In this document: positions 8,493 through 61,502 of the stretch, one piece after another
Layout: each line of letters starts with the position of its first letter
Position numbering within the stretch: the stretch's first letter is position 1
Source: Alphaproteobacteria bacterium
GTDB lineage: Bacteria; Pseudomonadota; Alphaproteobacteria; MPNO01; UBA830
Length of the DNA stretch: 64,000 nt
Reading direction: 5' to 3'
Assembly: GCA_965243135.1 (NCBI GenBank)
Contig: OZ251539.1
Location: 5,088,001-5,152,000 of the forward strand
Position numbers and translations under genes: made by a program
The notes under the pieces: generated by a model
Seen by the model: only the letters and a program-made list of their open reading frames with translations
The model's database searches: none
Told to the model about the DNA's origin: nothing

Positions 8493-9761
8493 TCAGGGCG
8501 CCTCTTTGAACAGGATGGAAGCGTTGGTGCCGCCGAAACCGAAGGAATTGGAGAGCGCGACGCGGACGGGCCTTTCCTTCGCCTGCAGGGGCACCAGATC
8601 GATGTCGCATCCGTCGGAGGGATTCTCGAGGTTGAGCGTCGGCGGCGCGACGCCGTCTCCGATCGCCTTGATCGCGAAGATCGCTTCCACCGCCCCGGCG
8701 GCTCCCAGCAGGTGTCCGATCGCCGACTTGGTGGACGACATCGACAGCGCGTATGCGTGGTCGCCGAAAAGCCGCTTGACGGCGCCCAGCTCGATCTCGT
8801 CGCCGACGGGCGTGGACGTGCCGTGCGCGTTGACGTAGTCGACCTCCTCCGGGTTGATCCGGGCGTTTCGCAGCGCGGCCCGCATCGAGCGGTAGCCGCC
8901 GTTTCCGTCTTCCGGGGGCGCGGTCACGTGATGGGCGTCTCCGGACAGGCCGTACCCCGCGACCTCGGCGTGAATCGTGGCGCCGCGCGCCTTGGCGCGC
9001 TCGTACTCCTCGAGCACCAGGACGCCGGCCCCTTCTCCCATCACGAAGCCGTCCCGGTCGCGGTCCCACGGCCGCGAGGCGCGTTCCGGCTCGTCGTTGA
9101 AATTCGAGGACAGGGCCCGCGCCGCGGCGAAGCCGGCGACGCCGAGGCGGCAGATGGCGGCTTCGGACCCGCCCGCCACCATCATGTCCGCGTCGCCGAA
9201 ACCGATCAGGCGCGCCGCGTCGCCGATCGCGTGCGCGCCGGTGGAACAGGCGGTCACCGGGGCGTGGTTGGGCCCCTTGAGTCCGTATCTTATCGACACT
9301 TGTCCGGACGCGAGATTGATCAGGCTCGAAGGGATGAAGAACGGGGAGATGCGGCGCGGCCCCTTCTCCTCCAGTTGCGCCGACGCCGCGGCGATCGTCG
9401 CGAGGCCGCCGATGCCCGAACCGATCATCACGCCCGCGCGCTCGGCGTCTTCTTCGGTCTCGATCTCCCATCCCGATGCGGCGAGGGCTTCCTTCGCCGC
9501 TGCCAGCGCGTAAACGATGAAGGCGTCCATCTTGCGCTGGTCCTTGGGAGGAAGCACTTCGTCGGGATCGAACAGGCCCGCCGCGGCGTCGCCGCGGGGG
9601 ATTTCGCAGGCGATCCGGACCGCGAGGTCGCCGACGTCGAACGACCGGATGGCGTCCGCGCCCGATTCGCCTTCGAGAAGACGCTTCCAGACGTTGCCGA
9701 CCCCGACGCCGAGCGGGGTGACGACGCCCATTCCGGTCACGACGACTCGCCTGAGTTCCAT
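8493..9761 (-). CDS. fabF: Beta-ketoacyl-ACP synthase II
   Basis: RRVVVTGMG, TACSTGAHAIG, NAHGTST, GHLLGAAG, SNSFGFGGTN. Confidence 0.97.
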   Translation of the reverse strand: MELRRVVVTGMGVVTPLGVGVGNVWKRLLEGESGADAIRSFDVGDLAVRIACEIPRGDAAAGLFDPDEVLPPKDQRKMDAFIVYALAAAKEALAASGWEIETEEDAERAGVMIGSGIGGLATIAAASAQLEEKGPRRISPFFIPSSLINLASGQVSIRYGLKGPNHAPVTACSTGAHAIGDAARLIGFGDADMMVAGGSEAAICRLGVAGFAAARALSSNFNDEPERASRPWDRDRDGFVMGEGAGVLVLEEYERAKARGATIHAEVAGYGLSGDAHHVTAPPEDGNGGYRSMRAALRNARINPEEVDYVNAHGTSTPVGDEIELGAVKRLFGDHAYALSMSSTKSAIGHLLGAAGAVEAIFAIKAIGDGVAPPTLNLENPSDGCDIDLVPLQAKERPVRVALSNSFGFGGTNASILFKEAP

Positions 9762-9789
9762 GTTCAGCTCTCCGAGGCGGCCCGGCAGC

Positions 9790-10026
9790 TCAGGCGCCGC
9801 TCTCCTCGAGAAACGCGATCGCGTCCTTCACGGTCATGATCTTCTCGGCCGCGTCGTCGGGAATCTCGCAACCGAATTCCTCTTCGAACGCCATTACGAG
9901 TTCCACGGTGTCGAGGCTGTCCGCGCCCAGATCGTCGATGAAGCTGGCGTTCTCGGTCACCTTGCCTTCGTCCACCCCGAGATGCTCCACCACGATTTTC
10001 TTTACCCGTTCTGCGATATCGCTCAT
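9790..10026 (-). CDS. acpP: Acyl carrier protein
   Basis: [13 protein letters not shown] phosphopantetheine site. Confidence 0.98.
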
Positions 10027-10158
10027 CTTTCTTCCCTGAATTCCGCCGGCTTCCGCGCATGCGGCAGACCGGACTGCGGTTCCGGCCGTCCGCGCGAGCC
10101 CTTTCCGGCGGCAGCCGGGGGTCCGAACGGAACGTCCGCTCGCCGTGCTTATATCACG

Positions 10159-10896
10159 CTATATCATGGCCATTCCACCGTTGACGTGCAGCGTCTGGCC
10201 CGTGACGTAAGCCGCTTCGCCGGAGCACAGGAACGCGACGCAGGCCGCGACGTCTTCAGGCGTTCCGGGCCGGCCGGCCGGTATCCGCCGGAACAGTTCC
10301 TCCCTGCGGGCGTCGTCCATCCCCGCGGTCATCGCGGTCTCGACGAAACCCGGAGCGACGCAGTTCACCGTGATGCCGCGCGTCGCGACCTCGGCGGCCA
10401 GCGATTTCGACATGCCGGCGATGCCCGCCTTCGACGCGGCGTAGCCGGTCTGGCCGGGATTGCCGGTGGTTCCGACGATCGAGGTGACGTTGACGATCCG
10501 GCCCCAGCGCGCCCGCATCATGCCCCGCAGGACGCCGCGCGAAAGCCGAAACGCCGCGGTCAGATTGACTTCGAGAACCTCCCGCCAGTCGTCGTCCCTG
10601 ACGCGCATCGCCAGGCCGTCGCGCGCGAGGCCGGCGTTGTTGACCAGAATGTCGACGCCGCCCATGGCGCCTTCGGCGGACGCCAGCGTCCGGTCTGCGC
10701 CCTCGGGTTCCGAAAGGTCGCTTTGGACCGCATGCGCCCGGTCGCCGAGCTCGGCCGCCAGCCCGTCGAGCGCGGCCCGGTTCCTGCCCGCGACGCATAC
10801 CGTCGCGCCCTGCGCGCAGAGCAGCCGCGCGGTCGCGCCGCCGATTCCTCCTGACGCGCCGGTGACCAGCGCGCGCTTTCCGGTCAGTTCGAACAT
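10159..10896 (-). CDS. fabG: 3-oxoacyl-ACP reductase
   Basis: TGASGGIG, NNAG, YAASK, VAPGF; between fabD and acpP. Confidence 0.95.
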   Translation of the reverse strand: MFELTGKRALVTGASGGIGGATARLLCAQGATVCVAGRNRAALDGLAAELGDRAHAVQSDLSEPEGADRTLASAEGAMGGVDILVNNAGLARDGLAMRVRDDDWREVLEVNLTAAFRLSRGVLRGMMRARWGRIVNVTSIVGTTGNPGQTGYAASKAGIAGMSKSLAAEVATRGITVNCVAPGFVETAMTAGMDDARREELFRRIPAGRPGTPEDVAACVAFLCSGEAAYVTGQTLHVNGGMAMI

Positions 10897-56709: not shown

Positions 56710-58224
56710 TTACATGCCCCAGATCTCGACGTTCGATTCCGTGCGGCGGAAAACCTTCTCGCTCCAAGGCTTCTTCTCGTCGCGGTCGAAGATCACCAGG
56801 TGGCCCGTCTCCGCCGCGCAGCGGTCCATGTAGCCCGCAACCTGCTCCAGTCCCGCGGCGACCGTCGCCTCCAGGCTCCCGCGCAACATCTTGCACTCGA
56901 CCACGAACTTCTGCTCGCTGCCGCCCTTCGGCCAGACGATCAGCAGGTCGACGCGCCCCCGGCCCAGCCCGAACTCCCGCCCGCCCGCCGCCGTTGAGCA
57001 CCCGTTGCAGAAACGCCTGCAACAGAAGCTGAGGCCAAGCCTCCGGGTACGCGAAGCGGTCCTTCCAGTGATTCTCGCGGAAGAACGTCTGGAACGCCGC
57101 CATTCGCCGCGTCGAGGCCGCCGCCGGCGCCGACGTACCAGGCCCTGCCTGAGCGCCGCCTGCGCCTTCCAGGTCAGTTCGCGCGGAATCACCTCGGCGT
57201 AGACCGGATTGGCGATGCGGAGCGGTCCGTCCTTCGCGAGCAGGCCCAGATCCCGCGCGTATTCGATGTCCCGGTCGGCGACGGCGCTCTCGTCTCCGCC
57301 GGCGAGGATCGGCTCGATCACCTGCCGGACGCGCTCCTCCTCCAGCCTGTACGCCAACTGGTCCAGGTGAGTCACCCGGCTCAGGATGAGCCGCTCCCGC
57401 GCGTCGGCGATTTCGCTGTCCGTCACGGCGCGCGAGCGGTCGCGCCCCGCCTCGCTCTCGAAGCAGGTTTCCCGGGCCAGCGCGTTCACCAGCCACGGCT
57501 GGCCGAGGGTCTGCTCCCACACCGCCTCCTGCGCCTCCGCCGTGAACGCCTGCCCCGTCTCGGCGGTATGCTGACCGAGCAGCGCCAGCGTCTCCTCCCG
57601 GCTGAAGTCTCTCAGCCGCAGCGACTTCGCGACGATGTTGAAGGGGCTGACGGTCGGGTCGATGCGGCAGTCGCGCACGTCCCGCATCCCGCACAGCACC
57701 ACGCTTTGCGGAAAGCCTCCCGGACGCTTGGGGTAGCCCGCGCGCAACTGTCGGAGCACCGAGAGCAGCGATCCGACCTGCAAGGCGTCGATCTCGTCGA
57801 TCAGCAGCACGAGCGGCTTCGGCGACGCTCGGGACCAGCGCGCCAACGCCTCCATCAACGCGTGGTCGGGAACCGAATCGGCAAGAATGCCGCGCCAAGT
57901 GTTGGACAGAAACGGATCGTCGAGTTCCGACCGCGCCTCGAATGCCAGATTGGCGAGCACCGTCCCTATTGCTCTCTCCAAGTCTTGGCCAGCGGTGCTC
58001 GCCCCCTCGACGGTGGCGTACAGGCAATGGTAGCCTTGTCCGCTTAGTAGATCCTGCAGGGCGATCAGTACGGAAGTCTTGCCCGTCTGCCTCGGGGCAT
58101 GCAGCACGAAATACTTTTCGTCCCGAACGAGCCGCAGCACCTCGTCTATGTCCAGACGTTCCAGCGCCGGGATGCAATAGTGCTTTTCGGGCTTGATCGG
58201 CCCCTCGGTATTGAAGAAGCGCAT
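56710..58224 (-). pseudogene. AAA ATPase + PD-(D/E)XK protein with three compensating frameshifts
   Basis: MRFFNT.GP, HAPRQTGKTS, DEIDAL, GQPWLVNAL, ANPVY.E; conserved AWYV and QAFLQRV.NGGG segments lie in other frames; GR.DL...ECK. Confidence 0.82.
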
Positions 58225-58799
58225 GGTCGGGCGGCTTTCGCTACGCTGCCGGACGACGATAGCCCGAAAAGTCGAGGGATGGCAGGCGTGTTCGCGCGGG
58301 CCGCTCATAGATTGATCGCGGCGTTGTCGGCGTCGAGCGCGATGACCGCCACTCCCGAGGCGACCGCGAAGCCGAACAGGGCGGCGTCCCTGCGCAATCC
58401 CTGCCCGGCCGGCCGGCCGTCAACCGAAGAGGGAGCAACGCAATGACCGTGATCTCCGCGCCAGAAGGACCGAGCCGGAAAGGCGAACCTCGCCCACGCG
58501 TCGCAGTGGCCGTAACGAACTCCGAGGCGGCCAAGCGCGTCGGCAAGGCTGAATGCGCAGGGCGTGGAGGTCGTCGACAGCGGTGAAGCCATGCGAACCG
58601 TGGACTGCCTCTGTCGTCATCGGCGGAAAAGACAGCTTGCGATCCGGCGAACTGCCCCTAGACGTCGCCACGTTTCGGTGCGCCGATGGCGAATTCCAGT
58701 TCCTCCGTCGGCGCGCTTGGCTGCGTATTTCCAAGCAGGGCGAACAACCGGGCGGGAGAGGTCGGCTGGCGCGGTCGTACGAGCAGCGGTTTACCGAGG

Positions 58800-58832
58800 A
58801 AAAAAAAGAAGCCGCGCCCGTCGGGCGCGGCT
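58800..58832 (-). terminator. Rho-independent terminator after the NHLP-fusion gene
   Basis: Minus strand AGCCGCGCCC-GAC-GGGCGCGGCT stem followed by TC and a T8 run. Confidence 0.88.
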
Positions 58833-59454
58833 ATCCGAGCCAGCGGTTGGTCAGGCGCCTGACCATGCCGGCGTAGACGTCGAGGGCCGCGTCGCCGTCG
58901 CCGTTGCCGATCGCCGCGACGGCGGCATCGATCCGCTCGCCGATCCAGTCCCAGTCGGCGTGATCGGCGGGGATCACCGCGACGATCGAGGGCGCCGTCT
59001 CGTAGTAGGCCGCGACCATCTCACGGCGCTCCTCCGTCTCCGACATGTAGCCGTCGCGGAAGCCCCGCAGCGCCGACAGCGTCGGACCGTCGTCCGCCTC
59101 GCCGCGGAGCCCCGCCACCGCCGTGGTCAGGAAGCAGTCGCCGCTCCGGGAACGTTGTATAAGGTTGTCCAGGTTGGCGGCCCACTCTTCGTACGTCATG
59201 TACGACGTGCCGCCAACGACGACGCCGAGATCGTCGTCCGACATCGTGCGGTTGGGGTCGGGCGGGGCCACCACGTGGATCGTGTCCTCGCTGTTCACCG
59301 CGAGGCGCACGTCGACGCCGCTCGGAATCTCAATTCCGTGCTCGGCCAGCGCCGCCTTCGGGTCCGCCTCCATTCGCGAGCGGAACTCGGGGTCACCGCG
59401 CCAACTCTCCTCCATCTCCGCCCAGCGGCCGCCGTCCGTCTTCTCGTTCGTCAT
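58831..59454 (-). CDS. NHLP-type leader peptide fused to a CFI-box-CTERM-like domain (207 aa)
   Basis: W..DPEFR.R..ADPKAALAE.G...P....V...N...H.V.PP.P...MSDDDL..VVGG (aa 1-82); CFLTTA...LRGFRDGY...MV..YY..AP.IV (from aa 107); AGGAG RBS. Confidence 0.82.
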   Translation of the reverse strand: MTNEKTDGGRWAEMEESWRGDPEFRSRMEADPKAALAEHGIEIPSGVDVRLAVNSEDTIHVVAPPDPNRTMSDDDLGVVVGGTSYMTYEEWAANLDNLIQRSRSGDCFLTTAVAGLRGEADDGPTLSALRGFRDGYMSETEERREMVAAYYETAPSIVAVIPADHADWDWIGERIDAAVAAIGNGDGDAALDVYAGMVRRLTNRWLG

Positions 59455-59511
59455 TTTTCTCGTCTCCTGTTCCTTGGGCCATTCCGCCCGCAAGCGGATC
59501 CCTACACTAGC

Positions 59512-59522
59512 GGGGGGGGGGG
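59512..59522 (-). repeat. C11 homopolymer (G11 on +) in probable promoter spacer
   Basis: Minus strand reads TTTTG-C11-GCTAGTGTAGGGA, ~60 nt upstream of the ATG. Confidence 0.75.
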
Positions 59523-59948
59523 CAAAACCCTAATTTCGCGAATCGCGCGCCGGGACGAGCGCCGCTGGCGACGGTCCCGAGCGGTGCCGAAGCGCCCCGG
59601 ACCTGCCGTTGCCCTCGGCCGGACGACGGCGGCGCGGCTCAAAATAGAAATCGACGATCTTCTTCCCACGGAGGGCGATAAAAAAGGTCTGGAAGAACAT
59701 CGACGGGGCCAGGCGCGTCGCTTCGCTGTCGGCGTTTGAATCTCTGCAGTCCGGCTTCGTTGGATCGACGTGCCGACGGACGGCGCGTTCCGCAACAAGA
59801 AAGAGGCGCGCAAAGTCGCCGAGGAGCTATGCCGTTTCGACGAATAGGCAAAGACCAATAGCGACGGCTCGCCATGGGAAGTCGCCGTTCGCGAACGCGC
59901 GACTTCGACACGTCGGAACGCTATGACGAGTGGCGGAAAAAAGCTGCG

Positions 59949-60051
59949 GCGCCGTTCGTCGAACACCGCCCGGAATTTTCCGTCAGAGGCTGGCAAGGCT
60001 CACATAAGCGCAGCGCCGTTCGTCGAACACCGCCCGAACTCTCCGTCAGAG
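59949..60051 (+). repeat. Two ~40-nt direct repeats with 64-nt period
   Basis: gcgccgttcgtcgaacaccgcccg...tccgtcagag at 59949-59988 and 60013-60051. Confidence 0.8.
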
Positions 60052-60188
60052 CCGAACTCGCCGCTGAAGAATGGAAAAATGTCGGCGACAGGCCCGCTCT
60101 CCAAGCATGGCTTCTCATCGCTGCCGAGGACCGACGACTGTACGGAGCGCACCGCACCGGACCGAGCCATGGGTCGGCGCGCGGCGGA

Positions 60189-61502
60189 TCACAGCAGTCC
60201 CGGCGCCCACAAGGCGACGGCCGGAAAACCCACGATCGTCGCGAGGCGGAAAAAATCGCTGACGACGAACGGCATCACGCCCTTGAACGTCTCGATCAGA
60301 TCGACGTCCTCGGCCAGGGAATTGATAACGTAAACGTTCAACCCTACCGGCGGCGTGATCAATCCGGTTTCCACCACGCTCAGGACCAGGATCCCGAACC
60401 AGATGGCCTTGGCTTCCATCGACATGCCGAGGTCGAGTCCGAGAACGATCGGAAGAAACACCGGCACCGTGATCAGGATCATGGCCAGTCCGTCCATCAC
60501 TGCGCCCAGAAGGATGTAGATGACGAGGATCAGCGCGATCACGGCGAACGGCGACAACTCGCTCCCGGCGACCATCCCGGCGATGCGCTCGGGCAGTTCC
60601 GACAGCGCCATGAACGAACCGTAGATTTCGGCTCCGATCAGGATGAGGTAGATCATGCCGGTCGTTTTGGCGGTGCCGATCAACGACTCCTTGAACCCCT
60701 CCCACGTCATGCGGCGAAACAGGGCGACGACGCCGGTGCAGGCCGCGCCCACCGCGGCCCCCTCGGTCGGCGTGAAGACCCCGCGGTAGATGCCGCCGAT
60801 CACGATCAGGAATATGGCCGCCACCGGCCAGACGTATTTCAGGCTTTCCAGCCGCGCGCGCCAGGTCGCGCGTTCGTCCGACGGGCCGGCCTCGGGCCGG
60901 ATCCGGACGAAGATCCAGACTGCGGCGACGTAATACAGCGTCGCGATCATGCCGGGGAAAAAGGCCGCGAGGAACAGATCGCCGATCGACTGTTCGGTGA
61001 TGATCGCGTAGATCACGAGGATGATCGACGGCGGGATGAGGATGCCCAGCGTTCCGCCGGCGGCAAGGCACCCCGTCGACAACGCGCCGGAATATCCGAG
61101 CTTGCGCATCTCCGGCAGCGCGACGCTGGCCATGGTCGCGCCGGTCGCGATGGAGGATCCGCAGATGGCGCCGAACGCCGCGCAGCCGCCGATCGTCGCT
61201 ACCGCGATGCCGCCGCGGCGGTGGCCGAACCACGCCCTCGCCGAGCGAAACAGAACCGCGCCCAGCCCGGAATGCATCGCCAGTTGGCCCATGAAAACGA
61301 ACAAGGGGATGACCGAAAGGGAATAACTGGCCGTCCGGCCGACTGGCGCGCCTTCGAGCCAGACGAGAAACTGCTCGAAACTCGTAACGTGAATCATGCC
61401 GACCGCGCCCACGGTGAACAGGGCGATGGCGACCGGCATGCGCAGCGCGATCAGCGCCAGCAGCGCGGCGAACATGAGAACGGCGAGATCGGGACCGCTC
61501 AT
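60189..61502 (-). CDS. TRAP transporter large permease (DctM)
   Basis: IPLFVFMG, CGSS.ATGA, GGTLGILIPPS, TPTEGA, ITPPVGLN. Confidence 0.94.
   Translation of the reverse strand: MSGPDLAVLMFAALLALIALRMPVAIALFTVGAVGMIHVTSFEQFLVWLEGAPVGRTASYSLSVIPLFVFMGQLAMHSGLGAVLFRSARAWFGHRRGGIAVATIGGCAAFGAICGSSIATGATMASVALPEMRKLGYSGALSTGCLAAGGTLGILIPPSIILVIYAIITEQSIGDLFLAAFFPGMIATLYYVAAVWIFVRIRPEAGPSDERATWRARLESLKYVWPVAAIFLIVIGGIYRGVFTPTEGAAVGAACTGVVALFRRMTWEGFKESLIGTAKTTGMIYLILIGAEIYGSFMALSELPERIAGMVAGSELSPFAVIALILVIYILLGAVMDGLAMILITVPVFLPIVLGLDLGMSMEAKAIWFGILVLSVVETGLITPPVGLNVYVINSLAEDVDLIETFKGVMPFVVSDFFRLATIVGFPAVALWAPGLL

Follow-up and report, generated by a model that had tools for sequence, protein, structure and literature searches.

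What is a leader of the nitrile-hydratase-like leader peptide (NHLP) or proteusin type doing in front of a CFI-box-CTERM domain? The question is raised by one gene of a 64,000-nucleotide stretch of DNA (hereafter the window; positions 5,088,001 to 5,152,000 of contig OZ251539.1, assembly GCA_965243135.1) from an alphaproteobacterium whose genome, called G000 here, is a single contig of 6.10 Mb with 65% GC. The encoded protein is made up of a leader ending in a double glycine (GG), a short variable spacer and a C-terminal helical domain. In the explanation that we prefer, and in which we have about even confidence, this protein is a co-regulated substrate that is cut at the GG and exported by an NHLM peptidase-containing ABC exporter (PCAT), the CFI-box being its functional part. 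We infer that the protein is cleaved, exported and active outside the cytoplasm; what the analysis shows is the identity of the domains, the conservation of the GG, the machinery in trans, the promoter box in common, membership of an operon in one relative and the structure of the cassette. The gene itself is best explained as an autonomous expression cassette of about 0.8 kb that belongs to the NHLP precursor regulon of the genome.

The gene, the parts of its product and its expression signals are as follows, in window positions:

58834-59454, minus strand: open reading frame (ORF) of 207 amino acids, with its ATG at 59454 and its stop codon at 58831-58833 (ORF listing and translation).
59209-59454, minus strand: leader, amino acids 1-82, with the double glycine G81-G82 at 59209-59214 (profile and fold matches).
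59137-59208, minus strand: variable spacer or candidate core, amino acids 83-106 (low identity, insertions and deletions, low model confidence, GC content).
58834-59136, minus strand: CFI-box-CTERM domain, amino acids 107-207, starting at the invariant Cys107; a predicted six-helix bundle (NF041770).
59464-59468, minus strand: ribosome-binding site AGGAG, 9 nt 5' of the ATG (sequence reading).
Stem-loop 58810-58832 and T run 58802-58809, minus strand: intrinsic terminator right behind the stop codon (terminator scan).

The original prediction, made from the letters of the DNA and a list of its ORFs, had described this ORF correctly in all particulars. The GC content at third codon positions is 0.90, like that of neighboring genes. 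The ribosome-binding site and the terminator attributed to the gene were both found, the stem of the terminator having 10 bp, 9 of which are GC pairs. The middle segment, which had been called visibly less GC-rich, has a GC content of 0.583 compared with 0.691 in the leader and 0.726 in the domain. No Rfam family matched positions 58200-60300, and no sigma-70 consensus promoter was found.

Both halves of the protein match the models of the families to which they had been assigned. For the leader, the profile TIGR03793 (leader_NHLP) matches amino acids 20-82 with an E-value of 4.5e-11 and 42.4 bits, under its curated cut-off of 50.9. Two other members of the fusion family, in genomes G078 and G080, pass this cut-off with 57.1 and 52.6 bits. 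The Pfam family NHase_alpha scores 28.9 bits on the leader, over the gathering score of 27.2. When the full-length AlphaFold model was compared with solved structures using Foldseek, the best matches in the PDB were the proteusin precursors 8tb1 and 9cjx, each with a probability of 1.00 (E-values of 4.6e-3 and 4.1e-2, identities of 34% and 28%, and a target TM-score of 0.55). The mean predicted local distance difference test (pLDDT) of this model is 63; it reaches 82-88 in amino acids 11-40 of the leader and is below 50 in amino acids 74-107. As read from the sequence, the leader ends with a canonical double-glycine motif (M-12, D-8, L-7, V-4, G-2, G-1), and D73, L76, G81 and G82 are invariant in the alignment of the 20 family members. 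In NHLP precursors the GG motif ends on average at about position 83, according to the available part of Haft et al. (2010; PMC2887384); here, it lies at 81-82. The nearest leader paralog of the genome (G000:C1:3491939-3492244) is 56% identical over amino acids 4-105. Its core is hydrophobic, Gly-rich and bacteriocin-like, unlike the S/T/C-rich cores, and its copy of the promoter box described below carries one mismatch.

The C-terminal half is recognized by the profile NF041770 (CFI_box_CTERM), which matches amino acids 107-163 with 44.9 bits and an E-value of 7.3e-12, over its cut-off of 40. In a six-frame search of the genome with this profile, the fusion scored 46.9 bits and was the only CFI-box of G000. 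The alignment covers profile positions 1-53 of 69, as it does for the protein P0032. The domain opens with CFLTTA at Cys107, in keeping with the Cys-Phe-[Ile/Leu] start of the family, and its end is the last residue of the protein. Some 40 positions of the domain are invariant in the alignment of the fusion family. Modeled alone with AlphaFold2 from an alignment of 150 rows, it has a pLDDT of 96.6, a predicted TM-score of 0.88 and six helices. No relative was found for this model among solved structures with Foldseek (E-values of at least 2.2). A wide VIA-align search gave a best Z of 5.3 (root-mean-square deviation 2.9 over 64 residues), which is the range of chance matches between helical bundles. 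A profile search of PDB sequences yielded spurious repeat matches only, and the ESM Atlas unnamed clusters only. The absence of a solved relative does not establish a new fold.

The fusion is not confined to this assembly. A word-indexed search returned 19 full-length homologs (P0002-P0020) with 50-91% identity. In a set of 78 genomes from the same order, only G000 and G012 contain the full fusion (two copies in the latter), and a scan of species-representative genomes yielded five full-length loci in three alphaproteobacterial chromosomes assembled from metagenomes (G078, G079 and G080). With G080 taken as the same genome as G012, this makes six copies in four complete or near-complete genomes. 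In addition, Logan contigs from four sequencing runs of two studies cover the gene, including positions 59137-59208. A 556-nt contig of run X4 (58826-59381) has one difference and bridges both junctions between the parts, as do a 413-nt contig of run X5 and 124-nt unitigs of runs X1 and X3 (59122-59245), the latter with no difference; X4 and X5 are labeled sponge metagenome. In a FastTree phylogeny of 145 CFI-box domains (5 of 150 rows, with fewer than 80 columns covered, were dropped), the five sampled fusions bearing a GG form an exclusive clade with a support of 0.889, which is consistent with a single fusion event. P0094, tried as a second, independent fusion of an NHLP leader with a CFI-box, was rejected as such: over 92-97% of its length, it is 35-38% identical to the family. 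A divergent family member without the GG is the better reading, and P0094 lies outside the fusion clade in the domain tree.

Among the 20 family members the outer parts are kept and the middle varies, a pattern that had been proposed as a check of the fusion. Averaged over all pairs, identity is 0.50 in the leader, 0.81 in the domain and 0.16 in the spacer, which contains insertions and deletions and measures 24-34 amino acids. Is this spacer a linker or a core peptide? With a pLDDT below 50, it is predicted to be disordered or is modeled with low confidence. From Thr83 to position 106 of the fusion protein there is no Cys, and S, T, G and A make up 8 of the 24 residues, as counted by hand; the composition of spacers and canonical cores was compared by eye. 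Across the family, 3 of the 20 spacers contain Cys, and the residue before Cys107 is D, G, P, E or S, with no conserved residue or motif there. The low pLDDT, the insertions and deletions, the 16% identity, the low-complexity linkers of the family and the composition would all suit a linker. By our own count, however, 12 of the 20 homologs have spacers that start with G-K-[TS]-[AG] or K-[TS]-A, the same motif as in the canonical cores of the genome. In a close trio of orthologs, moreover, the ratio of nonsynonymous to synonymous substitution rates (dN/dS) is 0.33-0.52 for the spacer, similar to its flanks, and therefore the spacer is not neutral. Its dS in the trio is 0.28-0.50 compared with 0.05-0.15 in the flanks, values that reflect just 4-6 synonymous differences. 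On such small counts, the raised dS could stem from a mosaic origin of the spacer or from homogenization of the flanks.

Some pairs of homologs seem to have exchanged leaders. P0015 and P0020 have identities of 0.40 in the leader, 0.60 in the spacer and 0.95 in the domain, and P0011 and P0013 have a long identical stretch in common despite different leader types. Such leader swapping argues that spacer and domain belong together as a unit, to which the leader would be a modular address tag.

Upstream of the gene, the window holds two elements that recur in the genome, and gene and signals together form a cassette:

59525-59536, minus strand: box with the gene-strand sequence AAATTAGGGTTT, located 71 nt upstream from the start codon (repeated 12-mer).
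59512-59522, minus strand: homopolymer, C11 on the gene strand, with the box on one side and a -10-like TAGTGT on the other (sequence).
58802 to about 59603, no strand assigned: cassette of about 0.8 kb (box, gene, terminator), inserted in the remnant of a decayed helicase gene; the right limit is approximate.

The exact 12-mer AAATTAGGGTTT has 9 copies in the 6.1-Mb genome, where about 0.07 would be expected by our own estimate from base composition. Eight of the nine, that of the fusion gene included, sit 100-180 nt upstream of matches to the NHLP leader model; a search that tolerated one mismatch gave 18 sites, 13 of them linked to NHLP genes. Behind the box comes a tract that is rich in C or consists of C only (at five NHLP promoters, 11-16 C), then GCTA. 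A box with at most one mismatch is present at all five fusion loci of the other genomes, and in G078 the sole copy within a 16.6-kb locus precedes the fusion. From this recurrence we infer that box and tract are a putative common promoter or operator. Phase variation of expression through changes in tract length is possible, perhaps across the whole regulon, and the C tract of the Bordetella fim promoters offers a comparison. One X4 contig has one extra base (G) in the tract, a weak observation at a depth of 4.5, and long-read assemblies may misjudge the length of homopolymers.

Elsewhere in the genome, most NHLP precursor genes are preceded by the box and a C-rich or homopolymer C tract. Sites of this kind were located in G000:C1 at 114437, 141034, 962194, 2208742, 3491823, 3781393, 3792185, 3806210, 3814645, 4210430 and 4921332, and a C13 tract stands 39 nt before the C39-ABC gene (3795726). 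Two ORFs that are not of the NHLP kind, and whose products look secreted, likewise have the box ahead of them, either exact or with one mismatch (182931 and 230413), so that the regulon may include other exported proteins. Two NHLP precursors of the genome, at G000:C1:3085207-3085419 and 4192389-4192601, have identical leader and core in the sequence listed, which indicates a probable recent duplication of a precursor cassette.

The limits of the cassette were drawn from a paralog of the surrounding DNA. There, the counterparts of the flanks 58489-58801 and 59622-59759, at G000:C1:3185607-3185959 and 3185971-3186107, are separated by only 12 bp; therefore the approximately 0.8 kb between 58802 and about 59603 is an insert. 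Its left edge coincides exactly with the T run of the terminator, and no target duplication or terminal repeats were seen around it. The DNA in common with the ortholog of G012, a genome of another family than G000, is limited to 58820-59536, that is, from terminator to box (90% nucleotide identity), and there is no flanking synteny. The other copies have unrelated housekeeping genes as neighbors, one with rpsD and an Lrp-type regulator, one with secA and argJ and others in G079, the neighbors being named by eye from their N-termini; no neighboring gene is conserved across the six copies.

The intact paralogous locus, G000:C1:3184502-3188999, contains an ORF for a superfamily-1 helicase of at least 778 amino acids (motifs by eye), followed by a 379-amino-acid ORF and an ORF that is PLD-like by eye. 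It may be a defense-type module, the domain names having been assigned by eye. Window positions 58489-58801 and 59622-60142 (plus strand) are a decayed remnant of these three genes, and the window copy of the helicase gene has further deletions relative to the paralog. The small flanking ORFs (58553-58873, plus strand; 59505-59996, minus strand) match no Pfam family, and the first of them belongs to the helicase remnant. At 56710-58308 (minus strand) lies a gene for a 532-amino-acid AAA-type ATPase (AAA_22, 32.8 bits; AAA_35 just under its cut-off). A different protein, with AAA-ATPase_like and PDDEXK_9, is encoded near the closest leader paralog (L035 11723-13282), which is probably a coincidence.

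If the leader is an address tag, where is the machinery that would read it? The genome has 22 matches to the NHLP leader model, one pair of which is a true nitrile hydratase alpha subunit; most of the others are precursors with cores rich in S, T, C, G and A behind the GG. It also has two C39-peptidase ABC genes, two YcaO genes and one LanM-like gene. An island for maturation and export of peptides made by the ribosome and modified after translation (RiPPs) lies at about 3.78-3.815 Mb, 1.35 Mb from the fusion gene, and encodes:

Island: fused cyclodehydratase and leader-binding protein (TIGR03604, score 276.9, cut-off 219.25; TIGR03882, 136.3, cut-off 36.9).
Island: SagB dehydrogenase (TIGR03605, 155.4, cut-off 78.4).
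Island: LanM-like protein (TIGR03897, 255.7, under the cut-off of 304).
Island: PoyD-like radical SAM epimerase (TIGR04517, 315.7, under the cut-off of 325).
G000:C1:3794153-3800904: NHLM_micro_HlyD (TIGR03794, 267.9, cut-off 156.2).
G000:C1:3794153-3800904: NHLM_micro_ABC1 with C39 peptidase, at 3795765-3797963 (TIGR03796, 1020.7, cut-off 853.3).
G000:C1:3794153-3800904: ABC2, partial, the query being truncated where the locus ends (TIGR03797, 330.8, under the cut-off of 709.4).

A C39 ABC transporter and two YcaO genes are present in all four genomes that carry the fusion. The original prediction had pointed out that no maturation genes lie nearby and had supposed that they act in trans. The first point holds for the 64-kb window, and the exporter and RiPP enzymes are indeed encoded elsewhere in the genome. 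The idea of machinery in trans is strengthened by the shared promoter box and by a relative, G078, which differs in that the fusion heads a precursor operon beside a cyclodehydratase. There, a gap of 59 nt separates the fusion gene (L038 7890-8624) from five co-directional NHLP genes downstream (8683-10722), behind which comes a 786-amino-acid ORF with a YcaO match (cyclodehydratase), and a C39 ABC gene lies about 12 kb further. NHLP precursors can sit far from their enzymes (Haft et al., 2010; PMC2887384, as far as the available text goes), and orphan status would therefore be ordinary for the family. A second and far larger tandem array of NHLP precursors (63-72 bits) is found in G078 twice, on two contigs (C1 737838-743789 and C2 20965-26923), with another C39-ABC gene close by.

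Leader recognition was also modeled. When amino acids 50-106 were docked on the C39 domain of ABC1, the median score was 0.54, compared with 0.02 for the best control, with a partner pLDDT of at least 52 and agreement between runs in at least 83% of contacts. Of 80 solved complexes, 58 attained the mark used, as did 2 of 110 mismatched pairs, and scores of 0.60 or less include 7 of the 80 solved complexes and both passing mismatches. Because similar complexes have been solved, the pass may reflect likeness only. The model thus lends weak support to recognition of the leader by the C39 domain encoded in trans.

What could the domain do once exported? A phmmer search over 1.84 billion representative sequences gave 2010 CFI-box matches at E-values of at most 1e-3, 152 of them at most 1e-10. 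Among the 150 matches listed of the 2010, nearly all have the CFI-box at the extreme C-terminus, in proteins of 68-1178 amino acids. The motif was located in 125 carriers; Gly precedes the Cys in 78 of them, and the 25 residues ahead of it are mostly Gly/Asp/Ser-rich. Of 111 carriers that were scanned, 110 match NF041770. Their Pfam domains are Sel1 (3), caspase (2) and zinc ribbon (2), with one each for the core of an extracellular contractile injection system (eCIS), LysM and NHase_alpha. Matches to PHROGs comprise a virion structural protein (4), tape-measure families (2+2+1), a DNA ejection protein (1) and endolysin/transglycosylase families. In genomes of the same genus, the domain (52-64% identical) ends proteins of about 540-650 amino acids with N-termini that resemble Sec signal peptides by eye, and at one such locus the carrier is in an operon with a weakly matching secretin-like lipoprotein and a T2SSE-family ATPase. 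Judged by these carriers, the CFI-box is a portable C-terminal module of putatively secreted and phage virion proteins. A literature search for the CFI-box, or for a motif of this box, returned no paper. Neither this search nor the structural comparisons bear out the sorting or processing role that the name implies and that the original prediction called putative.

Some further observations concern this domain. Three paralogous operons of G000 with a secretin-like lipoprotein (G000:C1:2908315-2909613, 508057-509298 and 5558709-5559944) encode a large secreted protein that ends at an acidic Gly/Asp linker, without a CFI-box. Counterparts in genomes of the same genus (locus L044 3699-12041) continue into a CFI-box, beside a T2SSE ATPase. 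The CFI-box is an optional appendage of these body proteins. By a Rosetta-stone argument, the fusion could complement body proteins that have lost their CFI-box. This was rejected as a general rule because no body protein accompanies the fusion in G012, and the body proteins of G017, G022 and G025 come with neither CFI-box nor fusion. Finally, at L034 10083-10526 (G010), a CFI-box minus its first two residues lies in frame behind a transposase-like fragment and looks like a copy that an insertion sequence has cut short.

In the explanation that we prefer, the fusion gene would be transcribed from the same type of promoter, box plus C tract, as the canonical NHLP precursors. The leader would be recognized by the NHLM exporter (ABC1 with C39, ABC2 and HlyD) encoded 1.35 Mb away, which would cut after Gly82 and export a product of about 125 amino acids. 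This product would consist of a variable N-terminal peptide of 24 amino acids and the constant helical CFI-box domain, the CFI-box being the functional cargo and the NHLP leader supplying the export route. Four points weigh against this explanation. The leader of the present protein fails the curated TIGR03793 cut-off. The distant member P0094 lacks the GG. A cargo of 125 amino acids is large for this class of exporter, since secretion of microcin V (MccV) by its PCAT dropped abruptly at cargos of 116 amino acids (PMC10231218, in the part of the article available). Lastly, the CFI-box carriers with zinc ribbons (2), caspase (2) and Sel1 (3) show no obvious export signal, and the CFI-box cannot safely be assigned a role outside the cytoplasm.

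The rivals differ mainly in what they make of the spacer and of the domain. Unlikely, though the most serious of them, is a genuine RiPP precursor in which leader, core and follower succeed each other. The YcaO/SagB, LanM-like or PoyD-like enzymes would modify amino acids 83-106 in trans, a second cut before Cys107 would release this core, and the CFI-box would be a follower for recognition or solubility, or a self-processing module. The hypervariable middle between conserved parts resembles families with conserved leaders and variable cores. The motif that opens 12 of the 20 spacers, the Cys in three of them, the non-neutral dN/dS and the position of the G078 fusion as first gene of a precursor array also speak for such a precursor. 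However, the spacer studied here has no Cys and few S, T, G or A residues, whereas most canonical cores are dominated by S, T, C, G and A. No conserved residue or motif marks a cut ahead of Cys107; the same Cys follows plain Gly/Asp/Ser-rich linkers on large, non-RiPP CFI-box proteins; and the spacer is predicted to be disordered or is of low confidence. A further reading that we hold quite improbable is a device for display or release of peptides. In this case, a hypervariable and possibly modified peptide would be carried on the constant CFI-box scaffold under a phase-variable promoter, and Cys107 would be chemically active, for example in covalent attachment or in cleavage of the X-Cys bond to free the peptide.

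There is only a slim chance that the product is a large unmodified toxin of the bacteriocin or microcin kind, with the CFI-box as killing domain and the leader as export signal only. The genome does combine a GG leader with a PCAT/HlyD exporter, the closest leader paralog does carry a bacteriocin-like core, the cassette looks horizontally mobile, and the CFI-box is found on tape-measure and ejection proteins of phages as well as on a single protein with an eCIS core domain. Yet no conserved neighbor offers itself as an immunity gene, the six copies being in unrelated contexts or in a pseudogene; the domain is the constant and not the polymorphic part; and the product exceeds the class II microcins, which are under 10 kDa (PMC10231218, in its available part). 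Equally improbable is an accessory protein that stays in the cytoplasm, where the NHLP-like domain would bind enzymes or the transporter as decoy, regulator or scaffold and the CFI-box would make another interaction. NHLP leaders are indeed folded, protein-like binding modules, as described in the available parts of PMC12537861 and PMC12455567 and seen in 8tb1 and 9cjx; the fusion comes first in the G078 operon, P0094 has no GG, and some CFI-box proteins have no export signals. But a GG motif invariant in 20 of 20 close members is hard to explain without cleavage, and the hypervariable spacer is left unexplained. As for a functionless chimera or an assembly artifact, to which we give hardly any credence, the location of the cassette inside a decayed pseudogene region and the leader score under the curated cut-off are in its favor. 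This reading is already contradicted by the 19 full-length homologs, the six copies in four genomes, the intact frame with its third-position GC of 0.90, a domain that is 81% conserved on average, the contigs of two studies that bridge the junctions, and the exclusive clade of fusion domains.

How does the fusion compare with known systems? With the NHLP/proteusin precursors and their NHLM machinery (TIGR03793, TIGR03794, TIGR03796 and TIGR03797; PMC2887384, in its available part), it shares a long folded NHase-alpha-like leader and a GG near position 83. Many paralogs per genome and genes possibly far from their enzymes are features of that family too (same source), and here the genome has a TOMM (thiazole/oxazole-modified microcin) cyclodehydratase, SagB, LanM-like and PoyD-like proteins and HlyD, ABC1 and ABC2. 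Unlike these precursors, however, it has 125 amino acids behind the GG, a 24-amino-acid spacer and about 100 amino acids predicted to be folded, in place of a short S/T/C-rich core. As a member of the CFI-box-CTERM proteins (NF041770), it scores above the cut-off, with a Cys-Phe-Leu start at the extreme C-terminus, but the usual carriers are large proteins with a Gly/Asp/Ser-rich linker, whereas the partner is a RiPP leader here.

In systems of the ProcA/ProcM type, dispersed families of precursors are served in trans by one set of enzymes. To our knowledge, no promoter box shared with a homopolymer tract, as seen here, has been reported for the prochlorosins. The likeness to them lies in scattered precursors, conserved leaders, hypervariable sequence after the GG and one locus for maturation and export (PMC10783134, in the portion available), and the difference in the constant folded domain that follows the variable part in the fusion family. 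Class II microcins (MccV/CvaAB; PMC10231218, likewise in part) have the GG signal and the C39 ABC transporter with an HlyD-type adaptor in common with the present system. However, the leader has 82 amino acids here instead of about 15-25, the 125-amino-acid cargo is over the length at which MccV export fell, and none of the six loci has an adjacent immunity gene; the fusion thus has neither the short GG leader, nor a product under 10 kDa, nor the neighboring immunity gene of this class. Both parts of the protein are known and named. Their fusion, the hypervariable middle, the cassette structure and the shared promoter box did not turn up in the literature that was searched.

NHLP/proteusin leaders are familiar as the tags that address short peptides destined for heavy modification into natural products. 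A conserved family that joins the tag to a folded domain suggests that the NHLP system may also handle small proteins or, alternatively, that there may be an undescribed precursor layout made of a leader, a variable peptide and a constant domain. For the CFI-box-CTERM family, with its 2010 cluster representatives and no literature, the fusion would provide a first experimental handle, since it presents the CFI-box by itself, as a minimal cargo of one domain for which a predicted N-terminus, an exporter and a promoter are defined. The shared box and tract suggest that individual precursor genes of the regulon may switch on and off independently. If the peptide-display reading is true, it would give a first function to a domain family of about 2000 clusters, and a new leader-core-follower logic to RiPPs.

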